From a virus: a stretch of 64,000 nt of DNA. The position numbers were made by a program, and so were the translations under genes. Positions 5,916 through 61,153 of the stretch are shown here, piece after piece. The notes under the pieces are model-generated. The model searched no databases and was not told where the DNA came from. It saw nothing but the letters and a program-made list of their open reading frames with translations. How positions within the stretch are numbered: the stretch's first letter is position 1; every line of letters begins with the position of its first letter. The stretch covers positions 6,076-70,075 of the IMG/VR virus record IMGVR_UViG_3300019477_000133; one strand, given 5' to 3'.

Positions 5916-6806
5916 ATGGGCGATATAAGCTTACTAACTAAAATTAAGGACTTTAAAAGTCCATGGTGTTATCAATATCAAAGACGTTTAGATACTTTAG
6001 AAGAAGATAAAGAAATACTTGGATGGACTGATGATGATATAAAAAACATCAATCTTGACGAATTTGAATTTTCTTTTATTACCACCAAAGAAGAAAAGAA
6101 AGAAGCAACAGATTTTATCAAACGTTATGAATGGCTTGGTACTGTAGGTAGTTACCCAACACATTGGTTTGCAGCACGCTATAAAGGAATTTTAGGTGGT
6201 GTAATCATTATGGGTATGCCAAATGCTTTCAGTAAACTTTTAGGTGAGAAGACTAAAGATATAGAACGTCTTATAGCACGTGGCGCAAGTGCATCATGGA
6301 CACCGATGAATCTTGGAAGTAAGTTCTTAATGTGGTGTATCAAGTGGATGACTAAGAATACACAATATCGCCTATTTACCTGTTATAGTGACCTACAAGC
6401 GAAAGAAAATGGTTCGATATACCAAGCACTCAACTTTTACTTTTTAGGGGCTGGAAGTGGAACAAATGTAAGATGTGTTAATCCATATAATCCAGAAAAG
6501 ATTATGACGGATAGAGCTTTTAGGTCAAAAAGTTTCTACAAACGTTATGCTAAAGACCTTGGAATAGAATGGCAGAAGAACTGGTCAAATAGCCAACGTA
6601 TGCTTTGGGAAAATATCCCTGATGACATTGAAAAAGAATTAAGATATTATTCCAAAAAGATGTTTGCCGAATCTGAAAAGATTTATTTTCCATCAAAATA
6701 TAAATACGCTTTTATTTTAGGTAAAGATAAAAGAGAAACGAAACGTTTGAGAAATGAATTTTTAAATAAAAACAAAGTATATGAGTACCCCAAAAGAGAA
6801 AAATAA
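5916..6806 (+). CDS. hypothetical protein
   Basis: 296-aa ORF. Confidence 0.5.
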   Translation: MGDISLLTKIKDFKSPWCYQYQRRLDTLEEDKEILGWTDDDIKNINLDEFEFSFITTKEEKKEATDFIKRYEWLGTVGSYPTHWFAARYKGILGGVIIMGMPNAFSKLLGEKTKDIERLIARGASASWTPMNLGSKFLMWCIKWMTKNTQYRLFTCYSDLQAKENGSIYQALNFYFLGAGSGTNVRCVNPYNPEKIMTDRAFRSKSFYKRYAKDLGIEWQKNWSNSQRMLWENIPDDIEKELRYYSKKMFAESEKIYFPSKYKYAFILGKDKRETKRLRNEFLNKNKVYEYPKREK

Positions 6807-17204: not shown

Positions 17205-18857
17205 ATGTCACAGAATTTATTTATCGAGGCAACAAAGTACAAACAGTATACTTTTACTGAGAATGGTGCACTTACAATGGCTTCAACAGGAAGCGAGTTA
17301 GCTAATCAGTTTGGTTTAGCTGGTAATTATCGTGGACGTAATATTTCAGATGTATTCTCAGACCAAGAGAAACTTTGGAATGAATCACATGAATATTCTA
17401 CACGTTTTCCTTTCTATCTGCGAATGATTACACGAAAGGTTAAAGTTAATAATGATACCACTACAGACAATGTACAGAGTGGACAAGGTCAGCGTGACGA
17501 AACTTTTAAAAGACTTCTGTGGCTTGCAAAGTATCATAAGGATACTTTCAATAATAACGTGTGGATTTTGCCTCTTATTGGGTCTTGGAAGGATTTATGG
17601 GCTATCATGTATTACGATGAGAAATTTGAAATCAATGCTATTGATAGAGAAATCATCTACAGAATAATTCATGAAGGACTCAAGTGTGATGCACATGTAA
17701 ATCTTGTTAAGAAGTTTATGCCTCGCATTAAGTCAAAATCTCACATTAAGACTGATTGGAATAAGCTTACAAATAAGTATGCCAAAGAATTTGCTAAGTT
17801 ATTCTCATTGTCTTACAAAGAGTATAATCATCTTAAGACTTCTGGAACATCTCATGATTTCCAAAAGTTGATGTGTTCAAGAAATTATGATAAGATTAAA
17901 TGGAATACAATTCCAGGACGTGCATTGAGTATAATTACCAATGGTAAATTCTTAGAGAATCATAACCTTATTGATTCATACACAGAGTGGGTTCTTAAGC
18001 AGGATAATATCAAGTTTACAGGTTATCCATATGAGTTAATCAAAAACTTGAAGAAACATTGTTACATTTATTATAATAGAAAGAATAATATTTCAGTTCT
18101 TCCTAAGTACATTACGACAACCATTAATAAGCAATTTAATGAGTTGATAGAAAAAGGTAAGAATGTCGGTGGTATCAATGGAAATGTATGGTGTGCATTA
18201 GACACATCTGGTTCTATGAACACAGGTGTACATGGTGATACTACAGCATTAGATATATGTCTTTCATTAGGACTTTATTTTTCAACACTTAATACAGGTG
18301 CATTCCATAAGAATGTAATCATGTTTGATGATACCTCTCGTGTATTGCAGCTTAAGGGTGAGTTCTGTGATATGATGAAGCAGATTCCTGATAATGCAAT
18401 GGGTGGAACTAATTTCCAATCAGTTGTTGATGAAATAGTAAGAATAAGAACTAAACATCCAGAGATTCCACTTACAGATTATCCTCAAACACTTTTAGTT
18501 GTATCAGATATGCAATTCAATGCCACAAATAATTATTGGATTCAATCTACAGATGTAGAAAATACGACGAATTATGAAGAGGCTAAGAAGAAGTTGAAGA
18601 GTGTATTCCCAGAGGAATTTGTTGATGAGTTCAGATTCATTTGGTGGAATTGTGCTTCTCGGCATACAGACTTCCCTGCAACAATTAAGGACGGAGGATG
18701 TTATTTCTTGAGTGGTTTTGATGGTTCTATTATTTCTTTACTGTTAGGTGGAGAAGAAGTAGATACCAACACAGGTGAGAAGAAGAAGTTAAGTATGGAA
18801 GAGTTAATGCATAAAGCACTTACTCAAGAGATTCTTAATTATATTGTAGTTGAATAA
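17205..18857 (+). CDS. vWA-domain protein with a TROVE/DUF2828-like N-terminus (Ro60-like architecture)
   Basis: MIDAS motif in WCALDTSGSMN followed by vWA-like alpha/beta segments; ~320-aa N-terminal helical region; promoter tatctttgcaac at 17169. Confidence 0.5.
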   Translation: MSQNLFIEATKYKQYTFTENGALTMASTGSELANQFGLAGNYRGRNISDVFSDQEKLWNESHEYSTRFPFYLRMITRKVKVNNDTTTDNVQSGQGQRDETFKRLLWLAKYHKDTFNNNVWILPLIGSWKDLWAIMYYDEKFEINAIDREIIYRIIHEGLKCDAHVNLVKKFMPRIKSKSHIKTDWNKLTNKYAKEFAKLFSLSYKEYNHLKTSGTSHDFQKLMCSRNYDKIKWNTIPGRALSIITNGKFLENHNLIDSYTEWVLKQDNIKFTGYPYELIKNLKKHCYIYYNRKNNISVLPKYITTTINKQFNELIEKGKNVGGINGNVWCALDTSGSMNTGVHGDTTALDICLSLGLYFSTLNTGAFHKNVIMFDDTSRVLQLKGEFCDMMKQIPDNAMGGTNFQSVVDEIVRIRTKHPEIPLTDYPQTLLVVSDMQFNATNNYWIQSTDVENTTNYEEAKKKLKSVFPEEFVDEFRFIWWNCASRHTDFPATIKDGGCYFLSGFDGSIISLLLGGEEVDTNTGEKKKLSMEELMHKALTQEILNYIVVE

Positions 18858-32716: not shown

Positions 32717-33859
32717 ATGTTAAGAGGGATTAAGATAAGATTATATCCAAACAATACACAAGAGCAGGTACTCAATAAGGTGCTTGGGTGTTACCGTTTT
32801 GTTTATAACCAAATGCTTGCTCGAAAACAGAATGCTTATAAAACAGATAAAACAAACTTATCTGTTACCGATTTATCAAAATGGTTTCATGGAACATTGT
32901 TAAAGGATGAACAATATGCTTGGCTGAAAGAACAGAACACGAAGGTGATGAAACAAGCAATCAGACAAATGGATGGTGCTTACCAAAACTTCTTCAAACA
33001 ACATAATGGTTTTCCAAAATTTAAAACAAAGAAGGATAAACAATCGGCATTATTCCCATATGAAGCCATTTCCAAAAAGAATACATTTGAAACCAAACAT
33101 ATCAGTTTGACAACCTCATTAAAGAATATTAAGTTCCGTTGTTCAGATTTGTATTTCAGAAGATTACAAAAGTATAATAAGAATATAAGAAGTGCTACCT
33201 TATCGAAGACCAAGAGTGGTAATTTCTTCTTATCTATCCTTGTTGAATTGGATGATACTGAATTAAAGAAATTTGAACATACAAACAAGCAAGTTGGTAT
33301 TGACCTTGGAGTCAAAGATTTTGTAATCACGTCTGATGGTGAGGTATTTGATAACAAACATTTTTTCAAAGAGAAAGAGAAAGAAGTAAGGATGCTTCAA
33401 AGACAATTGTCAAGAAAAGTTAAAGGTTCTAACAATTGGAATAAGCAACGTGTTAGAATTGCAAAAGCATTTGAAAGACTTACCAACCAAAAGGAAGCCT
33501 ATATACATAGTGTTGTGAATGAGTTATTAACTTATTATGACACTGTATTTATGGAAGACTTGAATGTGAAAGGAATGCTAAAAAATCATCATCTTGCCAA
33601 AGCTATACAAGAGGTTAGTTTCTATAAGTTCAAGGAAATATTGTTTAGCAAGTCACTTGTTAACGATAAAAGTGTTGTGTTTATTGAAAGATTCTATCCA
33701 TCAAGCAAGACTTGCTCACAATGCGGTTATAAGAAACGAGACTTGAAGTTAAGTGATAGATTTTGGATTTGCCCTGAATGTGGGACAAAACATGACAGAT
33801 ATGTTAATGCTGCCATAAACATATTGTTGGAAGGTCAACGAATACTGGCAGCGGTGTAA
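32717..33859 (+). CDS. tnpB: TnpB (OMEGA RNA-guided nuclease, IS200/IS605 OrfB family), catalytic motifs intact
   Basis: N-terminus IKIRLYPNNTQEQ; RuvC-I VGIDLGVKD; RuvC-II VFMEDLNVKGM; zinc finger CSQCG...CPECG; RuvC-III HDRYVNAAINIL. Confidence 0.85.
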   Translation: MLRGIKIRLYPNNTQEQVLNKVLGCYRFVYNQMLARKQNAYKTDKTNLSVTDLSKWFHGTLLKDEQYAWLKEQNTKVMKQAIRQMDGAYQNFFKQHNGFPKFKTKKDKQSALFPYEAISKKNTFETKHISLTTSLKNIKFRCSDLYFRRLQKYNKNIRSATLSKTKSGNFFLSILVELDDTELKKFEHTNKQVGIDLGVKDFVITSDGEVFDNKHFFKEKEKEVRMLQRQLSRKVKGSNNWNKQRVRIAKAFERLTNQKEAYIHSVVNELLTYYDTVFMEDLNVKGMLKNHHLAKAIQEVSFYKFKEILFSKSLVNDKSVVFIERFYPSSKTCSQCGYKKRDLKLSDRFWICPECGTKHDRYVNAAINILLEGQRILAAV

Positions 33860-35351: not shown

Positions 35352-35915
35352 ATGAAAATAGGATTTTTGCTTGGTAGTTTCGACCCGATACATATTGGTC
35401 ATGTGCAAATGATTAATAGTGTTCTGAATAGTGGCTTTGATAAAGTTATAGTTGTACCAACTGTTCAGAATCCATGGAAGGATTCTAAAGCTACTGATTT
35501 TGCTTATCGTTGCCAAATGATAGAGAATGCAATTTCACATTTTGGAGATAAATGCTGCCTTTCTAAGGATGAATTATTGGTTGATGGTACAAACTATTCA
35601 TATAAAGTATTATCGCTTCTTAGAGAGAAATACAAAGACAATGAGTTATTTATCATAGCTGGTTCTGATTGTGTTAATGACATACCGAAATGGAAAAATT
35701 ATAATTCAGATATAGAACCATATTTTTCTATTGCTGGATTAAAAAGAAATAAGACGGATGAAATTCCAGATTATGCGATACCAATAGAACAAGATATTGT
35801 TATTCCTATTTCCTCGACATACATAAGACGAATGGTAAAAGAAAAGAAAATTTTTTTTCCATATATAAATGCTGAAAATGAAAAGTTGATAAAAAAGTTG
35901 AATTTGTATCATTAA
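35352..35915 (+). CDS. nadD: nicotinate(amide)-nucleotide adenylyltransferase
   Basis: N-terminal nucleotidyltransferase motif GFLLGSFDPIHIGHV (GxFxPxHxGH). Confidence 0.7.
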   Translation: MKIGFLLGSFDPIHIGHVQMINSVLNSGFDKVIVVPTVQNPWKDSKATDFAYRCQMIENAISHFGDKCCLSKDELLVDGTNYSYKVLSLLREKYKDNELFIIAGSDCVNDIPKWKNYNSDIEPYFSIAGLKRNKTDEIPDYAIPIEQDIVIPISSTYIRRMVKEKKIFFPYINAENEKLIKKLNLYH

Positions 35916-36225
35916 CATTTTATTGAACGAGAAATACATATTCATCTACATTTTTTCAAACAACTTTGACTTTAATCAAGAATAATAGCATTTTTATAAA
36001 ATAGGCATATCAAAAACGATATATATTAAATTCAACAAATATATATTATTGCGAATGAGTTGATTAACAGCTTAATTTGGAAATAATTAGAAAAAATAGT
36101 GAAGTGAGAATTATGTTGAATTTATTAAAAAAAACATTCAAGTGGTATTGTAACAGAATGGAAATGACTTATGGTAAAGTTATCCAAGCAGGATTTACCC
36201 CTTGTATGTAACGAAACAAAAAGTA

Positions 36226-36253
36226 AAGAGTGGTTGTTAGCCACTCTTTTTTA
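36226..36253. terminator. intrinsic terminator at the 3' end of the minus-strand LRR gene
   Basis: agagtgg...ccactct hairpin with flanking T and A runs. Confidence 0.5.
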
Positions 36254-36258
36254 TTATA

Positions 36259-37227
36259 TTAATCTTCAATTGGTTTGATTAAATCTTTGTATTGTTCCCA
36301 ACCATTAGTTGCATTTTTGTATGCATCTACAGAATCTCTTGGAACAAGTACTTCTTTAAATTGCCAGCCACGTTCTATCGTAGGTGGCTCTTTAGCTAAA
36401 ATAGTTAATGATAGGTTGCTTCTATTAGTAGAACGACTAATATATTTAATTGTTGCTGGTAATGTTAATGTTTCCAATGATGTACACATTGAAAATACAT
36501 CATTTTCAATCCTTTCTAAATTGGTCGGTATAATTACTTCGGATAAACTCGGACAATCTGAGAAGAGAAGTCTATTCAACGTTACAAGATTACTAGGAAG
36601 TATGACACGTCTTAATAAGTGGGAATGATAAAACACAGCATAACCTAAATCAGCATTTGAACCAGTTTCAAAAACTACTTCGGTCAATTTAGGACAATAT
36701 CCAAATGCTGTAGCTATTATTCTTTCTAATGTATTTGGAATAAAAACTGTTTGTATATTAGTTTTTTCAAAAGCTTGATTGTATATCGTTTTTACTGTTC
36801 TTGGTATTGTAAGCGACGATATTGATGTATTATACAACATTTTGTTACCGATTACATCTCCTGTAAAATGAGTCATATCAGCTTCAGTAATTAATTTACT
36901 ATTATTTCCTTGAAATACTGTTGTAAAAGTATAACGAAATTCACCATCACAATCTAAAATGTTCCACCCTTTTTGTAATAATACGTCTTCTTCTGAAACT
37001 TTTAAGATTTCATCAGATAACAATGGATTAATCTTAACACCATCACCATCAACATAAAGTCTTATATAGTTATTGAGAGATGGTTTATTATAACTTACCC
37101 CCCCCCCATTTAGTACATAACTGACATGTGGTTCAATGTAATCTGAAGAGTTTAAGAATACATCACTTACTGATTTTTCTGCAAATAATTTTAAATGTTT
37201 CATATATACAATTTTAGTTATTATCAT
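36259..37227 (-). CDS. BspA-type leucine-rich-repeat surface protein
   Basis: repeats IPNTLERIIATAFGYCPKLTEVVF / LPSNLVTLNRLLFSDCPSLSEVIIPTNLERIENDVFSMCTSLETLTLP; contains a G10 tract on the coding strand. Confidence 0.6.
   Translation of the reverse strand: MIITKIVYMKHLKLFAEKSVSDVFLNSSDYIEPHVSYVLNGGGVSYNKPSLNNYIRLYVDGDGVKINPLLSDEILKVSEEDVLLQKGWNILDCDGEFRYTFTTVFQGNNSKLITEADMTHFTGDVIGNKMLYNTSISSLTIPRTVKTIYNQAFEKTNIQTVFIPNTLERIIATAFGYCPKLTEVVFETGSNADLGYAVFYHSHLLRRVILPSNLVTLNRLLFSDCPSLSEVIIPTNLERIENDVFSMCTSLETLTLPATIKYISRSTNRSNLSLTILAKEPPTIERGWQFKEVLVPRDSVDAYKNATNGWEQYKDLIKPIED
37098..37107 (-). repeat. homopolymeric tract: C10 on the + strand, G10 on the coding strand, encoding GGG inside the LRR gene
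   Basis: read directly: ttaCCCCCCCCCCattt. Confidence 0.8.
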
Positions 37228-37441
37228 TAATAAATATCTATCTGAATATATAATTTAATATTTGTTAACTATTAATATTTGGATAAATAAAAACATTTAG
37301 TTAACTTTGCAATTGTTATTTGAAAAGATGATGAAATAAAAAAAATTAGTAAATTAGACATAAATATGATGCATGATAGTAAATTTTTTAAAAGTAAAAT
37401 ATATTTTAAATGTTTGTTTTTCAACAAGCTATAGATAGTAT

Positions 37442-37741
37442 ATTGTTAGAAGTATTGTACCGAAAGGTAATCACAACTTGTGGGACATGGAGGAAAAACG
37501 ACCACTTATTGTTAGAAGTATTGTACCGAAAGGTAATCACAACTATGTCGCAGAACTATCAATTGAAACTGGAATTGTTAGAAGTATTGTACCGAAAGGT
37601 AATCACAACGGACAACAAGCAGATAACACACGTTATAAGATTGTTAGAAACTCTTTACCGCAAGGTAATCACAACGTAGGGCAAAAGACAATTAACGCCT
37701 TGAATGTTGTTAGAAATAATATACCGCAAGGTAATATAAAG
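37442..37741 (+). CRISPR. CRISPR mini-array 1: five 36-nt repeats (ATTGTTAGAAGTATTGTACCGAAAGGTAATCACAAC; the last two degenerate) and four 30-nt spacers; the repeat 3' end GGTAATCACAAC is Cas13b (VI-B)-like
   Basis: exact 66-nt periodicity, spacers all 30 nt and unrelated to each other; repeat hairpin TACC-GAAA-GGTA with a GNRA loop; repeats degrade toward the 3' end. Confidence 0.85.
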
Positions 37742-38112
37742 TCAAACCGTTACAATTTGTAACACCTTTTAAAAAAATACATATTAAACATATGACAAAT
37801 CAAGAAGAATATAATATAATAATGTCTGTAAAAAATAAAATAAAAAAACAGATATTAAGAAATTCATATCAGTTACAAAAGTTAGACATGAAGGATTACC
37901 CGATATATTATTTTCTTTCTTAACAACGAAAGAAAATGTATTAGATTACACTATTAGCTATAAACTATCCAGATATTCAAATACAGAAAGTGTTGTTATA
38001 TCATGTGGAGTTTTATCTGGCAATATTAGTAAGTTAGTTAACTTTTTTACAACAGTATGTAAAATATTAGATGATTCCCAATATTATAATATTGAAATAA
38101 TAGATTTAAAGG

Positions 38113-38727
38113 ATGAATAATTTTTCAATTAAAGACAATAAAGGACAAGAACATTGGATTAGTCGTTCTGTTAGTGTGGTCATGTTTGTGTTTTGCAAGA
38201 ACTTGCGTGGAGAATGGTGTGTCTTGGCTTCACAGCGTGGCGAAGGCACTCCAGACCCAGAGTATATAAATGCATGGAATTGTCAGTGTGGTTATCTTGA
38301 TTATAACGAAACAACCAAAGAAGCAGCACAACGTGAGACATTGGAAGAAACAGGAATAAAAGTACCATCACATTTAATTAAGTTTTGGTCCTTTAATGAT
38401 AACCCTAACGATGATAAACGTCAAAATATTACATTTAGATATTATGCGGTGTATCAGCATGCAATTATTGATGACTTTAAGTTTTCAAAACAGAATATGG
38501 AGAAGAACGAAGTCGGTGCGATTACTTGGGTTAACCTAAAAAATATAGATAAAATGCGTTGGGCGTTTAATCATGACAAACTGATTAAAGGTGCTGCAGT
38601 GAAAGCAGGTATTATACCTTTTAAAATGAAATTACGTTTATGGTGGGAAAATTTTAAATTAGGATTTCGCACAAGATTAATTGAGTTACGTCAAGAATTT
38701 CATCAAAAAGACAACTTTATATATTAA
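38113..38727 (+). CDS. Nudix hydrolase
   Basis: Nudix box GYLDYNETTKEAAQRETLEETGI (GX5EX7REUXEEXGU). Confidence 0.65.
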   Translation: MNNFSIKDNKGQEHWISRSVSVVMFVFCKNLRGEWCVLASQRGEGTPDPEYINAWNCQCGYLDYNETTKEAAQRETLEETGIKVPSHLIKFWSFNDNPNDDKRQNITFRYYAVYQHAIIDDFKFSKQNMEKNEVGAITWVNLKNIDKMRWAFNHDKLIKGAAVKAGIIPFKMKLRLWWENFKLGFRTRLIELRQEFHQKDNFIY

Positions 38728-39168
38728 ATTTGCAAAATAATTTGTATAATTGAAATAAATATAGTATATTTGCAAAGTGATTTTTAAATCACATAATAAT
38801 AATAACGGTTGAGGAGATTACTCTTAGACCATTTTTTAATTAAATATTTAAAATAAAATGAAGGCTTTAATTATTATGTTCACAGCTTGCGTAGCACTTA
38901 CTTTTGCTGCGTGTGGTAACAATGTAAAGACTAATACAACTCAGAAGGATTCTGATACGACTGTAGTTGATAGCGTTGATACTGTTACTGTAGATTCAGT
39001 TGTTGCAGATTCTATCGTGAAGTAAGTTTTTTTGCAACTTATGTTCAATATAGCTTTGAACAACATTTTAGCCTTGGTTATTCCAAGGCTTTTTTGTTTT
39101 TATTAACATTTTATTTTTGGTAGTAAAATATTTTGCTTGTATCTTTGCAACATAAAATATAAATTAAC

Positions 39169-42900: not shown

Positions 42901-43881
42901 ATGGAAGATTTAGTTACAAAGCAACTTAGGAAACGTTTCCTCAAGGATTTTAATCTACCTATCCAAGTAATACAAGACCCTTACTTTACAGAGCGTCTTG
43001 AACTATGCGGTGCTACTCAAGATTATAATAATCTTCTTGAATACATCGACACCAATTATAGTGGTAGTTATAGAGCATTCTTAGATGCTTATGCACAAAT
43101 AAGAGATGAAATTGTTACTTCATGTTACAACTCAGAAGCGTTTAAACTGTTCAACAACAGTGACATTAAAGGTGAAAATCCATTGATTCCACAACGGAAC
43201 TTGTATACTGAAGAACAAGATGGAAATAGTTTTGTAAGCGTTGATTTAAAGAAAGCAAACTTTCAAGCACTTAAATATGTTAATTCCGAAATAGTCCTTA
43301 ATACTGATACATATGAAGGATTTATAGGAAAGTTCACGGATAGTGAATATATTAAGAAGTCAAAATATACAAGACAAGTTATCTTTGGAAAACTTAATCC
43401 GAAAAAGACAATTAGTATAGAGAAACGTATTATTAATAAAATTTATAAGACGCTTAATGATAAGTTCAATCTGACTGAATATTTAGAACCATATTCTATG
43501 TGTACAGATGAAATTATCTACAAAGTGAAAGATAACAATAATAACGTATTGACAGATTTGCTGTGTGATAAATCTTTAATGATGATGGAACAAATTATTA
43601 AAGACACACTCGGGTTTGAAGTACGCATTAATTATTTCGGTCTTAAGTTACATCAATTCAAGCTTGCTACATCGGAAGCAAAAGTCAATTCTTTCACTAA
43701 ATTGAATCATGTAACAAATGAGGTGTCTTATGCGTGTATTCCATCTACATACTATCCACAGATTTACAAATTAATTAATGGTTTAGATGTAACTAAGAAT
43801 GACCTTGTTTTTTATTATGAACATGAGTTGGCGACATTCTTAAACCCATTGGTAAAATTAAATAAAGATAATGAAATTTAA
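42901..43881 (+). CDS. hypothetical protein
   Basis: 326-aa ORF after the promoter acctttgcaacat. Confidence 0.5.
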   Translation: MEDLVTKQLRKRFLKDFNLPIQVIQDPYFTERLELCGATQDYNNLLEYIDTNYSGSYRAFLDAYAQIRDEIVTSCYNSEAFKLFNNSDIKGENPLIPQRNLYTEEQDGNSFVSVDLKKANFQALKYVNSEIVLNTDTYEGFIGKFTDSEYIKKSKYTRQVIFGKLNPKKTISIEKRIINKIYKTLNDKFNLTEYLEPYSMCTDEIIYKVKDNNNNVLTDLLCDKSLMMMEQIIKDTLGFEVRINYFGLKLHQFKLATSEAKVNSFTKLNHVTNEVSYACIPSTYYPQIYKLINGLDVTKNDLVFYYEHELATFLNPLVKLNKDNEI

Positions 43882-45172
43882 AATCAAAGATAAAAAGATA
43901 GAAAAAACCATCCATACAATACGTGCACTTATCAAAGGAACCAAATTTGAAGGTGTTACGTATGTTGTAGGTGGTTTTGTACGTGATACGTTAATGGGAG
44001 AAGTATCTAATGATTTAGACATTGTTGTTAATCTCCCGTCTGGTGGAATAGATTTAGCGAATACTTTAACAGAGTTGGATAATAGTCATAGTGACTCTAA
44101 TCCTATTGTATATCCTAAGTATGGTACCGCAAGCTTTCATTTAAAGAATAATGATGAATATTCTGATGTTGTTATTGAGTCTGTGGAAACACGGAAAGAA
44201 CAATATCATTCAGAATCACGTAATCCAGAAACATGTTTTGGAACTTTAGAAGAAGATGCATTTAGAAGAGACCTTACAATTAACGCATTGTATTACAATA
44301 TCTCAACAGATAAAGTAGAAGATGTTACTGGAAAAGGACTTGATGATTTGAAAAATCATGTTATCAGAACTACAAATGATAACCCTAACATAGTTTTCTT
44401 TGATGACCCATTGCGTATAATGAGAGTTATCAGATTTGCAAATAGATATGGCTGGAATATAGAAGAGAAGACGTGGAAATCATTGCAAGAATGTGCTTCA
44501 AGAATAAAGATTATTTCTAAAGAAAGAATACGTAATGAGTTGAATAAGATAATTGCCAATAAAGACTGTATAAATGGTTTGAATTATTTAAAAGATAGTG
44601 GTATTTTATCTTATATTCTTCCCGAACTATTTGAACAATGTTTTGTTCCATGTTCACAGGACTTTAATAGTATGTTTGATAAAATAGTTACAATATGTAG
44701 TCAAGCACCTATATGTTTATATACTCGTCTTTCAATTCTATTATCATTTTGCAAAACAGATAGCGCATGTGAAACTATTCTATCTCATCAAAAGCAACCG
44801 AATGTAATAATAAAGCATGTGCAGAATGCACTGTTAGGTAAAAACTTCAGAAGAGAAGACGAAGAATTAGAAGTATCTTTACGTAGATTATATAAGAAAT
44901 GTAACCAAAATATAGATAATGCATTATGGGTGTATCGAGTTTTTACAGATGAAGAAACTTATAACGAAACGGTAAATACGTGGCTAAAGATAAAAGATAG
45001 TGCTAAAATTTATCTTCCGATAGATGGAAATGAAATCTTCTCATATCGTGCAGATATTACAAATAATGACAGAAAATTATTAATTGATTATCTACACGAA
45101 GAACAATGCAAAAATCCTTTCTTAACAAAAGAAGAATGTGTTGAATTAATTAAACAATATCAGTTACATTAA
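43871..45172 (+). CDS. cca: tRNA nucleotidyltransferase (CCA-adding enzyme) / poly(A) polymerase family
   Basis: head-domain motif YVVGGFVRDTLMG...NDLDIVV (GGxVRD ... DxD); FRRDLTINALYY matches motif RRDxTINA. Confidence 0.7.
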   Translation: MKFKIKDKKIEKTIHTIRALIKGTKFEGVTYVVGGFVRDTLMGEVSNDLDIVVNLPSGGIDLANTLTELDNSHSDSNPIVYPKYGTASFHLKNNDEYSDVVIESVETRKEQYHSESRNPETCFGTLEEDAFRRDLTINALYYNISTDKVEDVTGKGLDDLKNHVIRTTNDNPNIVFFDDPLRIMRVIRFANRYGWNIEEKTWKSLQECASRIKIISKERIRNELNKIIANKDCINGLNYLKDSGILSYILPELFEQCFVPCSQDFNSMFDKIVTICSQAPICLYTRLSILLSFCKTDSACETILSHQKQPNVIIKHVQNALLGKNFRREDEELEVSLRRLYKKCNQNIDNALWVYRVFTDEETYNETVNTWLKIKDSAKIYLPIDGNEIFSYRADITNNDRKLLIDYLHEEQCKNPFLTKEECVELIKQYQLH

Positions 45173-45967: not shown

Positions 45968-47149
45968 ATGATTAAATCAATTTTAGATACAGATTTGTAT
46001 AAATTCAGTACTTCATATGCTTATTTTCATAAGTTTAATAGAGCGGAGGGAACATTTAAGTTTAACGACAGAAACAAAGAAGATTGGAGAAACTATCCAA
46101 ACTTTATGGATGAGATTGAGATACAAATTGAAAACTTATCCAATATTCGTCTTACAAATGAAGAAAGAGATTGGTGTGTTGAGAACATTGATTATATACC
46201 AGAGAATTATTGGGAATGGCTAAGTACTTTTCGTTTCAAACCAGAACTTATTAAGATGTGGCTGGATGACGATGGTGTCTTCCAGTGTGAGGTGACGGAT
46301 AAACTCTATCGTGTGACATTATATGAGATAGCTATTCTTGCCACATATGCCGAAGTAAGAAATCGAGTATTAGGAAATAAGATTAACATGGAGAAAACTA
46401 TGTTAAAATTAGAAGATAAGATTTCTTATGCTAATATGAATAGCCTCTGTTTTTCTGAATTTGGAACACGTAGACGATATAGTTTTAATGTACAAAATGA
46501 AGTCGTTAAACGACTAAAAGAAAAGTGCCCTGTATGTGCTGGAACAAGTAATGTGTATTTGGCAAAGAAACACCACATGCGACCTACTGGTACATTCCCT
46601 CACGAATGGATGATGTTTCATGCTGCTGTGTATGGATATAAGCGTGCGAACTACATGGGGCTTGAGGACTGGATTGATGTATATGAAGGTAATCTTGGTA
46701 CTGCGCTAATTGATACATATACTACTGAGTCGTTTCTTAGAACCTTAACCTTGCAGCAAGCTTTGCTTTTGAGAGGTTTCCGCCAAGATAGTGGTGATGA
46801 GTTTAAGATTGGTAATATGATTATTAAACGTTTACAAGAATTAGGAATCGACCCTAAGACTAAATTGCTTATCTTCTCAAATGCCCTTACATTTGAAAAG
46901 TATAAAGAAATTCATGATTACTTTAATGGACGTATTATGGTCTCAGCTGGAGTTGGCACAAATCTAACTTGTGATACAGATATCAAAGATTACAAACCAG
47001 CAAATATTGTCATGAAATTATCAAGAGCGAGATATAGTAGTAAAGACCCTTGGGAAAAGTGTATCAAAATTAGTGATGATATAGGCAAACACATGGGAGA
47101 TGCTAAGGAATTTGATAAAGCCATGAGTGATTTGCATTTGTCTGAATAA
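45968..47149 (+). CDS. pncB: nicotinate phosphoribosyltransferase
   Basis: N-terminus ILDTDLYKFSTSYAYFHKF matches the NAPRTase signature (LDTDxYKxxM). Confidence 0.7.
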   Translation: MIKSILDTDLYKFSTSYAYFHKFNRAEGTFKFNDRNKEDWRNYPNFMDEIEIQIENLSNIRLTNEERDWCVENIDYIPENYWEWLSTFRFKPELIKMWLDDDGVFQCEVTDKLYRVTLYEIAILATYAEVRNRVLGNKINMEKTMLKLEDKISYANMNSLCFSEFGTRRRYSFNVQNEVVKRLKEKCPVCAGTSNVYLAKKHHMRPTGTFPHEWMMFHAAVYGYKRANYMGLEDWIDVYEGNLGTALIDTYTTESFLRTLTLQQALLLRGFRQDSGDEFKIGNMIIKRLQELGIDPKTKLLIFSNALTFEKYKEIHDYFNGRIMVSAGVGTNLTCDTDIKDYKPANIVMKLSRARYSSKDPWEKCIKISDDIGKHMGDAKEFDKAMSDLHLSE

Positions 47150-59005: not shown

Positions 59006-61153
59006 ATGCGTACTTTACTAATTCTTAGAGGTTGTATGGGCAGTGGTAAGTCTACTTTCATTAAGGAAAATGGTCTTACTGATTACACATTGTCAGCCGA
59101 TGATATACGTTTAATGTTTCATTCTCCAAAGATGAATGAAGAGGGCGATATGACTATTAGCGCACGTTCCGATAAAATGGTATGGGATACATTGCATACT
59201 ATGCTTGAGAACCGTATGCGTAATGGTGATTTCACTGTTATTGATGCTACACATAAGACATCTAAGGCTGTATCTAAGTATGTAGAATTAGCTGACAAGT
59301 ATCGCTATAATTGTTATCAGCATAATGTCGAGGCAACCTTGGATGAATGTTTGGAACGTAATTTGTTACGTGACCCAGTAAGACGTGTTCCAGACATTGA
59401 TATTCGTCGTGCATACAATATGCTTCAAGAAAATAAGTTGTCTAATCGTTTCAAGGAAGTTAATGATGTAGATGACATTCTCAATTATTACATTACCGAT
59501 GCTTCTGCATACAAGGAAGTAAAGATTATAGGTGATGTACATGGTTGTCACACATGCCTTTTAGAAGCTATTGGTGGCTCTTTAAACCCAGACGTGTTAT
59601 ATGTATTCGTTGGTGATTATTTCGACCGTGGTATCGAAAATAAAGAAGTGTATGAGTTCCTATTGTCACATTATAATGATGACAACGTGGTCCTTCTTGA
59701 AGGAAATCACGAGAAGCATATCTGGCGTTTGATTAACGGTGAGGAGATAACTTCAGAATACTTCAAGATGACACTTGATGAGATAACCAAGGTTTATCCA
59801 TTGGAACAGGTTCGTAAGGAGTTAAAGAAAATTTACTATCGTATGCGTCAGTGTTTTGCATTCACATACCGTGGTAAGAAATACTTGGTAACACATGGTG
59901 GACTTACATCTGTTCCAAATCTTACAACTATTCCAACAAACGACATGATTAAGGGTGTTGGGGGATATGATATGGAAGTAGATAAGATATATGAAGATAA
60001 TTATTTGCTTGGGAAGTGTCAGGACTTTATACAAGTACATGGTCATCGCAATACTCTTTCTACCGAACATTCAATTTGTCTTGAAGATTGTGTTGAATTT
60101 GGCGGTAACTTAAAGGTTTTCTCTATAACACCAGAATATGCTTCTATATTAAAATACGAAAATAAAGTGTTTAGTATAGATAATATGAATGCTTTTCAGC
60201 AAGTAGTATATAAGGTTGATGACCCAGAAGTTAAGAAGATAATGAATAGTCGTCTTGTTAATGTAAAGGGTTGTAAGCATAACATGTACTCTATCAACTT
60301 TAATCGTAATGCATTTATTGGAAAGAAATGGAACTTTGCTACTATCAAGGCACGTGGTTTATTTGTTGATAAGAATACAGGAGAAGTAAAGATGCGTTCT
60401 TATGATAAGTTCTTTAATATTGATGAACATAAGACAACTAAGAGAAATAAACTTGAAGAAACTCTTAAGTTCCCAGTAAAAGTAACGATAAAGGAGAATG
60501 GATATCTTGGAATTATGTCAGTAGTAGACAATCAGTTAGTATTTGCTTCCAAAACAACTGACAGTGGTCCTTTTGCTGAACGTTTTGAACGTATTTTTAA
60601 CGAAACTGTTAGTAAGCACGATAAAGACCTATTGAAGAATATCCTGAAGAAAGAGAATGCTTCGGCTGTGTTTGAAGTGATTAGTCCTACAGAAGACCCA
60701 CATATTATTAGATATGAAAAGGAAGAAGTGGTATTGCTGGACATTATCCATAATGTGCTTAACCTTGGTGAAAACTATACAGAAGAGTCAGATAAGTTCA
60801 AGAATTTCTTAAGAGAAAATACATCTTTGAGAATGCCAGACGAATTAGTTATTAATACTAATGATGAGTTATGGGAATACCTACGGACTAATATAGGAAC
60901 TAATGATTCCGTAGAAGGTGTTGTAGTCACAGATGCTACTGGATTCAAGTTTAAAGTAAAGTTCAATTACTATCTAATGGTGAAGAACCTTAGACGTATT
61001 ACTCAGATATTCAGAAAGTGTAAGCGTGATGGTACGCCATTTAACGAAAAAATATGTCGTAATGATATGGAAAAGAATTTCGTTAATTTCCTTGAAAAAG
61101 AAGATGATGGAGAAATGAGTATCATTGATTTATATGATAAATTTCAAAAATAA
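59006..61153 (+). CDS. pnkP: polynucleotide kinase-phosphatase with a C-terminal nucleotidyltransferase (ligase-like) domain (bacterial Pnkp-like RNA repair enzyme)
   Basis: P-loop LILRGCMGSGKSTF; calcineurin-like phosphoesterase motifs GDVHGC / GDYFDRG / GNHE; ligase motif I-like KVTIKENGYLG. Confidence 0.65.
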   Translation: MRTLLILRGCMGSGKSTFIKENGLTDYTLSADDIRLMFHSPKMNEEGDMTISARSDKMVWDTLHTMLENRMRNGDFTVIDATHKTSKAVSKYVELADKYRYNCYQHNVEATLDECLERNLLRDPVRRVPDIDIRRAYNMLQENKLSNRFKEVNDVDDILNYYITDASAYKEVKIIGDVHGCHTCLLEAIGGSLNPDVLYVFVGDYFDRGIENKEVYEFLLSHYNDDNVVLLEGNHEKHIWRLINGEEITSEYFKMTLDEITKVYPLEQVRKELKKIYYRMRQCFAFTYRGKKYLVTHGGLTSVPNLTTIPTNDMIKGVGGYDMEVDKIYEDNYLLGKCQDFIQVHGHRNTLSTEHSICLEDCVEFGGNLKVFSITPEYASILKYENKVFSIDNMNAFQQVVYKVDDPEVKKIMNSRLVNVKGCKHNMYSINFNRNAFIGKKWNFATIKARGLFVDKNTGEVKMRSYDKFFNIDEHKTTKRNKLEETLKFPVKVTIKENGYLGIMSVVDNQLVFASKTTDSGPFAERFERIFNETVSKHDKDLLKNILKKENASAVFEVISPTEDPHIIRYEKEEVVLLDIIHNVLNLGENYTEESDKFKNFLRENTSLRMPDELVINTNDELWEYLRTNIGTNDSVEGVVVTDATGFKFKVKFNYYLMVKNLRRITQIFRKCKRDGTPFNEKICRNDMEKNFVNFLEKEDDGEMSIIDLYDKFQK

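Follow-up and report, generated by a model that had tools for sequence, protein, structure and literature searches.

Does a run of ten guanines inside a phage gene act as an ON/OFF switch for that gene? Tracts of G or C drive phase variation of surface genes in Campylobacter, Neisseria and Haemophilus (reviewed in PMC11868660). The tract considered here lies in a 64,000-nucleotide (nt) stretch of viral DNA (IMG/VR record IMGVR_UViG_3300019477_000133, positions 6,076 to 70,075; hereafter the window), within a minus-strand gene for a BspA-type leucine-rich repeat (LRR) protein. A preliminary description of this DNA had proposed it as a slipped-strand mispairing hotspot and a possible phase-variation switch. 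Comparison with related loci bears the proposal out: the tract ranges from G7 to G11 in relatives while the rest of the gene stays intact. Slipped-strand mispairing at the DNA level thus probably toggles a monocistronic accessory gene between a full LRR protein and a stub of 35–38 amino acids (aa), in populations that would contain both forms. The comparative evidence strongly supports phase variation, and from it we infer that the mechanism is slippage, that switching is reversible within a lineage and that it has adaptive value.

The tract reads CCCCCCCCCC (C10) on the plus strand at 37098-37107 and G10 on the coding strand. In the gene's own frame it appears as AAT GGG GGG GGG GTA (N-G-G-G-V, inside ...VLNGGGVSY...), so that both its length and its coding of three consecutive glycines are exactly as first described. 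At a base composition of 31% GC over 64 kb, it is the sole G or C run of more than 5 nt in the window, the next longest being 5 nt. Such a run is not attributable to chance, since models with independent, identically distributed bases or first-order Markov dependence expect only about 2e-4 to 2e-3 of them, and G10 is present in none of 100 dinucleotide-preserving shuffles of the window. From the same shuffles, GGGGGG is expected about 2.9 times over both strands, whereas the window outside the tract has none. GGG makes up 4.3% of the glycine codons in the other 49 long open reading frames (ORFs) of the window, and three in succession have a probability of about 8e-5.

The preliminary description placed the gene at 36259-37227. 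A minus-strand LRR ORF of 322 aa does occupy this interval, but its proposed start is not kept: the ATG at 37227 is replaced in relatives by ACG, CTG or an in-frame stop, while the ATG at 37203 (MKHLKLF...) is invariant among them. We accordingly place the gene at 36259-37203, with 37203 as the most likely true start. This gives a protein of 314 aa with the glycines at codons 33-35, and the stretch up to 37227 is probably not translated.

Only G7 and G10 among the lengths found, both of the form 3n+1, keep the two sides of the tract in frame. In G9 alleles (3n) a TAA stands directly after the tract and leaves a 35-aa peptide ending in NGGG; in G8 and G11 alleles (3n+2) the stop comes three codons later, leaving 37-38 aa that end in ...KL. 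Read in its two other frames, the gene contains 33 and 39 stops. A change of one nucleotide thus truncates the product, as had been anticipated, and matching small ORFs occur in metagenomes. There, truncated N-terminal pieces of 35-52 aa have been called as genes, and each of the same short OFF-state peptides is present on 13-15 contigs.

A latent ATG is also formed by the AT of the AAT codon together with the first G of the tract. At G8 and G11 this ATG shares the frame of the entire downstream ORF (282-283 aa, MGG(G)V...), and gene callers do start there in such alleles (P0010, P0012, P0019, P0036, P0038 and others). From the sequence we infer that it may be used for translation. It is of practical note for annotation that callers split the gene into ORFs of 35-52 aa and 205-286 aa in about two-thirds of assemblies.

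A protein search gave 19 close matches. When these are aligned, only the glycine run (NGGGV, NGGV, NGNV) stands out as an indel hotspot, and several of the homologous gene calls begin at this run as MGGGV. We then considered the DNA of 31 related loci, obtained by looking up the encoding contigs and by scanning IMG/VR and JGI metagenomes. A pure G run of 7, 8, 9, 10 or 11 is present at the homologous codon in 29 loci, between flanks that are conserved. At the same position, two alleles found in three loci read AAT GGT AAT GTR and carry no tract. The existence of these tract-less alleles indicates that the protein does not need a polyglycine run and that both parts of the gene form a single ORF.

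Length differences are found between nearly identical genes. L010 (G9) and L011 (G11) share 99.7% nucleotide identity, L008 (G7) and L030 (G8) 99.3%, L001 (G11) and L014 (G10) 98.8%, and L029 (G9) and L033 (G10) 98.3%. The 19 unique combinations of allele and tract comprise one G7, one G8, five each of G9, G10 and G11, and two tract-less forms. Fitch parsimony on a neighbour-joining tree of these 19 tips requires at least 12 changes of length and at least 11 changes of frame, and every sister pair of tips on the tree differs.

The members of four protein clusters at 90% identity provide a wider sample of 127 contigs. Tract lengths were inferred here from the gene calls, assuming that all glycine codons of the run are GGG, which is true in all 29 tract-bearing loci for which we have DNA. 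On this basis G7 is present on 5 contigs, G8 on 24, G10 on 29 and G11 on 27; a further 40 have late-start calls (a 3n tract or a cut contig), and two have an interrupted, in-frame run (NRGGV). Proteins sharing an identical C-terminal 205-208 aa form seven sets within which the tract state varies. One of these sets is found in four states: NGGV (G7), NGGGV (G10), MGGGV (G11) and a late-start call.

Out-of-frame alleles show no decay. All of them keep 32 codons open upstream of the tract and 275-282 downstream, and pairwise ratios of nonsynonymous to synonymous substitution (dN/dS) are 0.24-0.6, pairs of two OFF alleles included. With both parts open, the other frames rich in stops and dN/dS in this range, the OFF alleles are not pseudogenes. 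The 32 codons ahead of the tract are the best-conserved part of the protein, with a mean dN of 0.054 against 0.26 for the remaining gene. The locus therefore combines what is expected of a simple sequence repeat (SSR) contingency locus: a homopolymer within the ORF, length polymorphism that includes frame-breaking lengths, and OFF genes that are intact and under selection.

The most serious alternative is that the tract is a real mutational hotspot without adaptive value, which keeps inactivating a dispensable gene, so that the OFF forms are transient and mildly deleterious. We regard this as unlikely, although it retains some weight because the in-frame fraction is near neutral: 6 of 17 unique tract-bearing alleles and about 28% of the 127 contigs are in frame, close to the one-third expected without selection. 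The gene also lies in an accessory region rather than a structural module, and the tract has been lost in two lineages. Against this reading stands the preservation of the tract. The run is uninterrupted in the window and in the 29 tract-bearing related loci, and it is kept in subgroups that share only 47-54% protein identity, even though one synonymous GGG-to-GGT change would stabilise it, GGG is a rare glycine codon in the window, and the tract-less alleles show that its loss is tolerated. Moreover, intact OFF ORFs with dN/dS below 1 require a frequent, selected return to ON. Retention of the tract together with selection on the OFF ORFs thus argues for an evolved contingency locus.

Several observations weigh against reading the tract as an adaptive switch. 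With only about 28-35% of natural consensus sequences in frame, roughly the neutral expectation, the ON state shows no sign of being favoured. The variation is seen between samples, in assembled consensus sequences, and some differences of one nucleotide, the G10 of the window included, could be consensus errors. The adaptive part of the argument comes from ORF conservation and tract retention in sequence data. Finally, the 64-kb window has no second G/C tract, while Fletchervirus phages have more than one tracted receptor-binding gene.

A second alternative, which the preliminary description had itself raised, is that the length of a 10-11-nt G run cannot be called reliably, so that the polymorphism would be sequencing or assembly noise. 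Long G homopolymers are error hotspots on short-read platforms, and many of the differences are of one nucleotide only. The lengths nevertheless span G7 to G11, with G7 and G10 one full codon apart. Where different assemblies (ENA MEGAHIT-style/scaffold, Logan, JGI) yielded identical alleles, the lengths agree in all six replicate groups, among them L003/4/5, L006/7, L092/93/94 and L009/12/27, and the recurrence of the same short OFF peptides on many contigs is likewise difficult to ascribe to noise. Artefact is thus unlikely for the tract family as a whole and, as an account of the polymorphism, highly improbable; with five lengths and concordant replicates it is largely excluded across the family, the window's own count excepted. 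A parallel comparison with A/T homopolymers in near-identical allele pairs was uninformative, the flanks being 94-97% identical, interrupted by indels of insertion sequences (IS) and of a neighbouring repeat array, and containing only one or two long A/T runs.

Long homopolymers can make RNA polymerase slip, and programmed recoding at a slippery G run, by transcriptional slippage or ribosomal frameshifting, might partly rescue OFF alleles and yield two proteins from a fixed genotype, with the conserved 35-38-aa N-terminal peptide as a by-product; but this requires a fixed frame relationship, whereas 0, +1 and -1 all occur among near-identical alleles and two alleles have one continuous ORF without a slippery site, which rules out programmed frameshifting and makes recoding of any kind scarcely credible.

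If the tract is a contingency locus, it would operate as follows. Guanines would be gained or lost by slipped-strand mispairing while the phage DNA replicates. Tracts of 3n+1 (G7, G10) would give the full 314-aa protein, which consists of the conserved 32-aa N-terminal peptide, the glycine linker, a small beta domain and the BspA-type LRR solenoid; 3n tracts (G9) would end translation at the TAA right behind the tract, and 3n+2 tracts (G8, G11) three codons on. As the gene stands alone on the minus strand with a likely terminator of its own, switching would touch the LRR protein only. A phage population would then always mix ON and OFF genotypes for a dispensable but still selected binding protein, a form of bet-hedging.

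A G+C-rich hairpin with T-runs on both strands lies 10 nt past the LRR stop codon and is likely a bidirectional intrinsic terminator; two terminator-like sites were found against 0.5 expected. If this terminator is functional, the LRR gene is a monocistronic unit. Most genes of this phage lie on the plus strand, the LRR gene being among the few exceptions. The AT-rich region on its other side presumably holds the LRR promoter and the leader of the adjacent array. A scan for sigma-70 promoters gave 26 matches against 16.5 expected and is uninformative in DNA this rich in AT.

In the protein, a Pfam search detects LRR_5 (BspA-type LRR, PF13306) at E=1e-32 and 113 bits, well above the cutoff of 27.7 bits, and no other domain or secretion tail at E<=0.1. 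The AlphaFold2 model of the 322-aa ORF, built with 20 homologues, has a mean predicted local distance difference test score (pLDDT) of 82.5. In the numbering of that ORF, residues 1-49, glycine run included, score below 50, so this segment is probably flexible; residues from about 50 to 117 form a small beta domain and 118-322 the LRR solenoid. The tract is so close to the 5' end that a frameshift there removes all folded domains. The best PDB matches in Foldseek are the Bacteroides 'putative cell surface' BspA-type LRR proteins 4fdw, 4fd0 and 4fs7, and further structural matches are unannotated LRR proteins from uncultured phages. Repeats above the Pfam threshold and the solenoid fold together place the protein in the BspA family.

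The preliminary description called the product a surface protein. We find no hydrophobic N-terminus or signal peptide (maximum Kyte-Doolittle score 0.8-0.95 in the first 60 aa), no lipobox and no type IX secretion system (T9SS) C-terminal domain in it, and that name is best kept as a family label. Its PHROG matches are families of unknown function. The gene is located about 25 kb from the tail-fibre gene, amid genes of NAD and nucleotide metabolism.

The N-terminal module is family-specific, being found in 11 of 1.8 billion cluster representatives. Distant homologues P0023 and P0026 have the N-terminal motif without a G run. Since a similar motif is also found at the start of the non-LRR protein P0032, it may be a modular docking element; a docking role could suit an N-terminus that is modular and conserved. 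The genomic context of P0032, a 6-kb contig, has uninformative neighbours.

The closest functional parallel is found in Fletchervirus phages of Campylobacter, which, as outlined by Sorensen et al. (2021, Cell Rep 35:109214), carry tracts of 7-11 G in receptor-binding genes. Both systems have a phage-borne intragenic poly-G run of 7-11 nt, a frame shift of a putative binding protein, and mixed ON/OFF populations, proposed in the present case. They differ in that the gene here encodes a BspA-type LRR protein in an accessory region rather than a demonstrated receptor-binding protein, with only one tract in 64 kb; the host here is probably a member of Bacteroidota and not Campylobacter, and the present locus is known from sequence alone. 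A tblastn search of the LRR protein against INPHARED (50,697 phage records) gave 14 weak, LRR-only matches, none of them to a Campylobacter phage. The two sets of loci work alike on this reading but are not homologous.

Contingency loci have also been described in T2, T4 and other phages (Gomez, Barrick & Waters, bioRxiv 10.1101/2025.10.21.683753). There too, non-structural genes contain homopolymer SSRs (6 nt or longer), whose reversible frameshifts are read as bet-hedging against variable host defences. That study counts homopolymers of any base and variation within laboratory populations, whereas the present tract, ten G long, departs strongly from the composition of the window and varies across natural metagenomes. 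With bacterial contingency loci the tract shares its position near the 5' end of the ORF, prompt stops in the shifted frames, intact OFF ORFs and the use of rare codons; it differs in being phage-borne and in a product without an export signal. Similarly, the protein has the LRR_5 signature and solenoid of the BspA family (Tannerella forsythia BspA; the three Bacteroides structures above) but is short, begins with its family-specific N-terminus and lacks the export and anchoring features.

Experimental proof of phage contingency loci so far concerns Fletchervirus and, in the 2025 preprint, T-even and a few other laboratory phages. The locus described here would add a natural example from an unrelated, uncultivated lineage of large phages, suggesting that poly-G bet-hedging reaches beyond Campylobacter phages. 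Its population-genomic signature (five lengths, at least 12 changes among 19 alleles, selected OFF ORFs) can be read in public metagenomes, and the gene family is suited to tracking ON/OFF ratios across metagenomic time series.

Two further runs of this type were observed in other metagenomic loci: a G7 run within a distant LRR homologue (locus L070, 4279-4285) and a C7 run upstream of an LRR homologue (locus L023, 2835-2841). These may mark further phase-variable LRR genes.

Directly upstream of the LRR gene, and divergent from it, the window contains a CRISPR-like mini-array. It consists of five 36-nt repeats (ATTGTTAGAAGTATTGTACCGAAAGGTAATCACAAC) with 30-nt spacers at an exact 66-nt period, the distal copies being degenerate. 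The repeat ends in ...GGTAATCACAAC, as in type VI-B (Cas13b) systems. A search for this 3' dodecamer at a 66-nt period returned Bacteroidota genomes only, among them Bergeyella zoohelcum ATCC 43767, the source of the classic Cas13b direct repeat. Repeat and spacer lengths, the 3' motif and variable spacers thus correspond to a type VI-B array. The window has no cas gene and no ORF of cas13b size (its largest, of 937 aa, is the tail fibre), and the fold of the repeat is weak (z=-0.6; B. zoohelcum repeat, z=-3.4) and lacks the canonical hairpin. For lack of an adjacent cas13b and of a stable repeat fold, the array behaves as an orphan mini-array.

The array is arranged head-to-head with the LRR gene in all relatives that have enough upstream DNA (L001-L014, L026-L034, L078, L091, L092 and L095). 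These arrays have 1-7 repeats and 28 unique spacers in total, and the last repeat lies at a conserved distance of 313-336 nt from the tract. Three of the relatives' spacers match genes of the same phage family, no more than 2.7 kb from the array and with 1-3 mismatches; the newest spacer of the window has no match in IMG/VR. One of the three corresponds to the conserved 3' end of the LRR gene. In its carriers' own LRR genes, 8 of the 30 positions do not match this spacer, while the protein differs from that of the matching alleles by only two amino acids (WEAYKN instead of WEQYKD), a divergence that suggests self-avoidance or escape in targeting between phages. Assuming plus-strand transcription of the array, the LRR spacer would be antisense to its mRNA and the other two sense, a strand logic that is inconsistent for an RNA-targeting system. 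Virus-borne mini-arrays have been linked to inter-viral conflict (Faure 2019, Medvedeva 2019 and Iranzo 2020, as summarized in PMC8616872). By analogy the present array fits this idea, with a repeat type that is RNA-targeting here.

We also considered a three-state switch set within such a zone of inter-phage CRISPR conflict, in which the expression state of the LRR gene, to whose mRNA a spacer of rival phages is directed, could in addition tune exposure to their RNA-guided exclusion. Here 3n+1 tracts would give the full protein with an N-terminal docking peptide, and 3n tracts may give nothing. At G8 and G11, initiation at the latent ATG could produce a truncated, folded LRR protein without the 32-aa peptide. 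Such a start could be used by the ribosome stopping 10-20 nt downstream, or by initiation free of a Shine-Dalgarno sequence as in Bacteroidota. We find this elaboration doubtful. Separately, the LRR protein was considered as an anti-CRISPR resembling AcrVIB1 and rejected, AcrVIB1 being only 13.6 kDa and thus far smaller than 314 aa.

One homologue joins the two elements. P0077 (NCBI TWP21248.1, labelled TM7 phylum sp. oral taxon 352) is an LRR homologue that starts with MLETLYRKVIT..., which is the translated CRISPR repeat. The array is therefore fused to the middle of the LRR gene in that contig, through either a deletion or a misassembly. An oral origin is hinted at by this record, whose TM7 label is probably a binning artefact.

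Table 1. Positions of the LRR gene, its tract and associated elements, and of other genes in the window
Feature	Position	Strand	Remarks
G10 homopolymer	37098..37107	-	Gly33-Gly35 and first base of Val36; in-frame (ON) length
TAAGTTATAA, stops for both shifted frames	37088..37097	-	Immediately 3' of tract; TAA 37095-37097 (3n tracts), TAA 37088-37090 (3n+2 tracts)
Latent ATG (last two bases of AAT and first tract G)	37107..37109	-	From sequence and gene-caller starts
N-terminal 32 codons upstream of tract	37108..37203	-	Best-conserved protein part; left as 35-38-aa peptide in OFF
BspA-type LRR coding sequence, 314 aa + stop	36259..37203	-	ORF list, Pfam, AlphaFold2, Foldseek, start conservation
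Hairpin, predicted bidirectional terminator	36225..36249	.	G+C-rich, T-runs on both strands
AT-rich intergenic region	37204..37440	.	LRR start to first CRISPR-like repeat
CRISPR-like mini-array	37441-37742	+	Five repeats
Spacer-matched site, LRR gene 3' end	36278..36307	-	NGWEQYKDL; 30 nt, one mismatch; spacer in L010, L011, L031
Spacer-matched site, Nudix gene	38588-38613
Spacer-matched site, 55-aa ORF	38879-38905
Tail fibre, 937 aa	9503-12316	+	YadA-head repeats and C-terminal S74 intramolecular chaperone
16 tRNA genes, three of them tRNA-Met	8547-34138		Clusters at 27.4-28.9 kb and 32.4-32.7 kb
Ro/TROVE-like RNA-binding protein	17205-18857		DUF7788
IS605-family TnpB	32717-33859	+	OrfB_IS605 and Cas12f1-like TNB domains
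NMNAT-like cytidylyltransferase	35352-35915
Nudix hydrolase	38113-38727
CCA-adding enzyme	43871-45172
NAPRTase-family gene	45968-47149
Polynucleotide kinase-phosphatase (Pnkp)/RNA ligase fusion	59006-61153

The window derives from a large uncultivated phage whose host is probably in Bacteroidota. Many of the contigs that carry the LRR gene are 300-330 kb long, and some reach about 415 kb; the 128-kb source contig of the window may thus be a fragment of a jumbo phage genome. A megablast search with 3.5 kb around the LRR gene found no match among deposited phages, and no LRR homologue was found in GTDB genomes, which thus gave no hint of a prophage or a host. By tblastn, the best deposited homologues of the Pnkp/RNA ligase protein are in Fusobacterium phages, at 41-43% identity. 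Deposited phages thus gave no close relative, and the lineage is uncultivated.

Other genes of the window are listed in Table 1. The NMNAT-like, Nudix and NAPRTase-family genes, which flank the LRR gene and the array, look like a set for NAD+ salvage or reconstitution. The Pnkp/RNA ligase fusion, the Ro/TROVE-like protein and the CCA-adding enzyme make up an RNA-repair kit, and the window also encodes TelA and DHFR. Three relatives (L003, L004 and L006) carry an insertion of an IS607-like pair, serine resolvase and TnpB, beside the Nudix gene and upstream of both the LRR gene and the array, suggesting that this element moves within the phage family.

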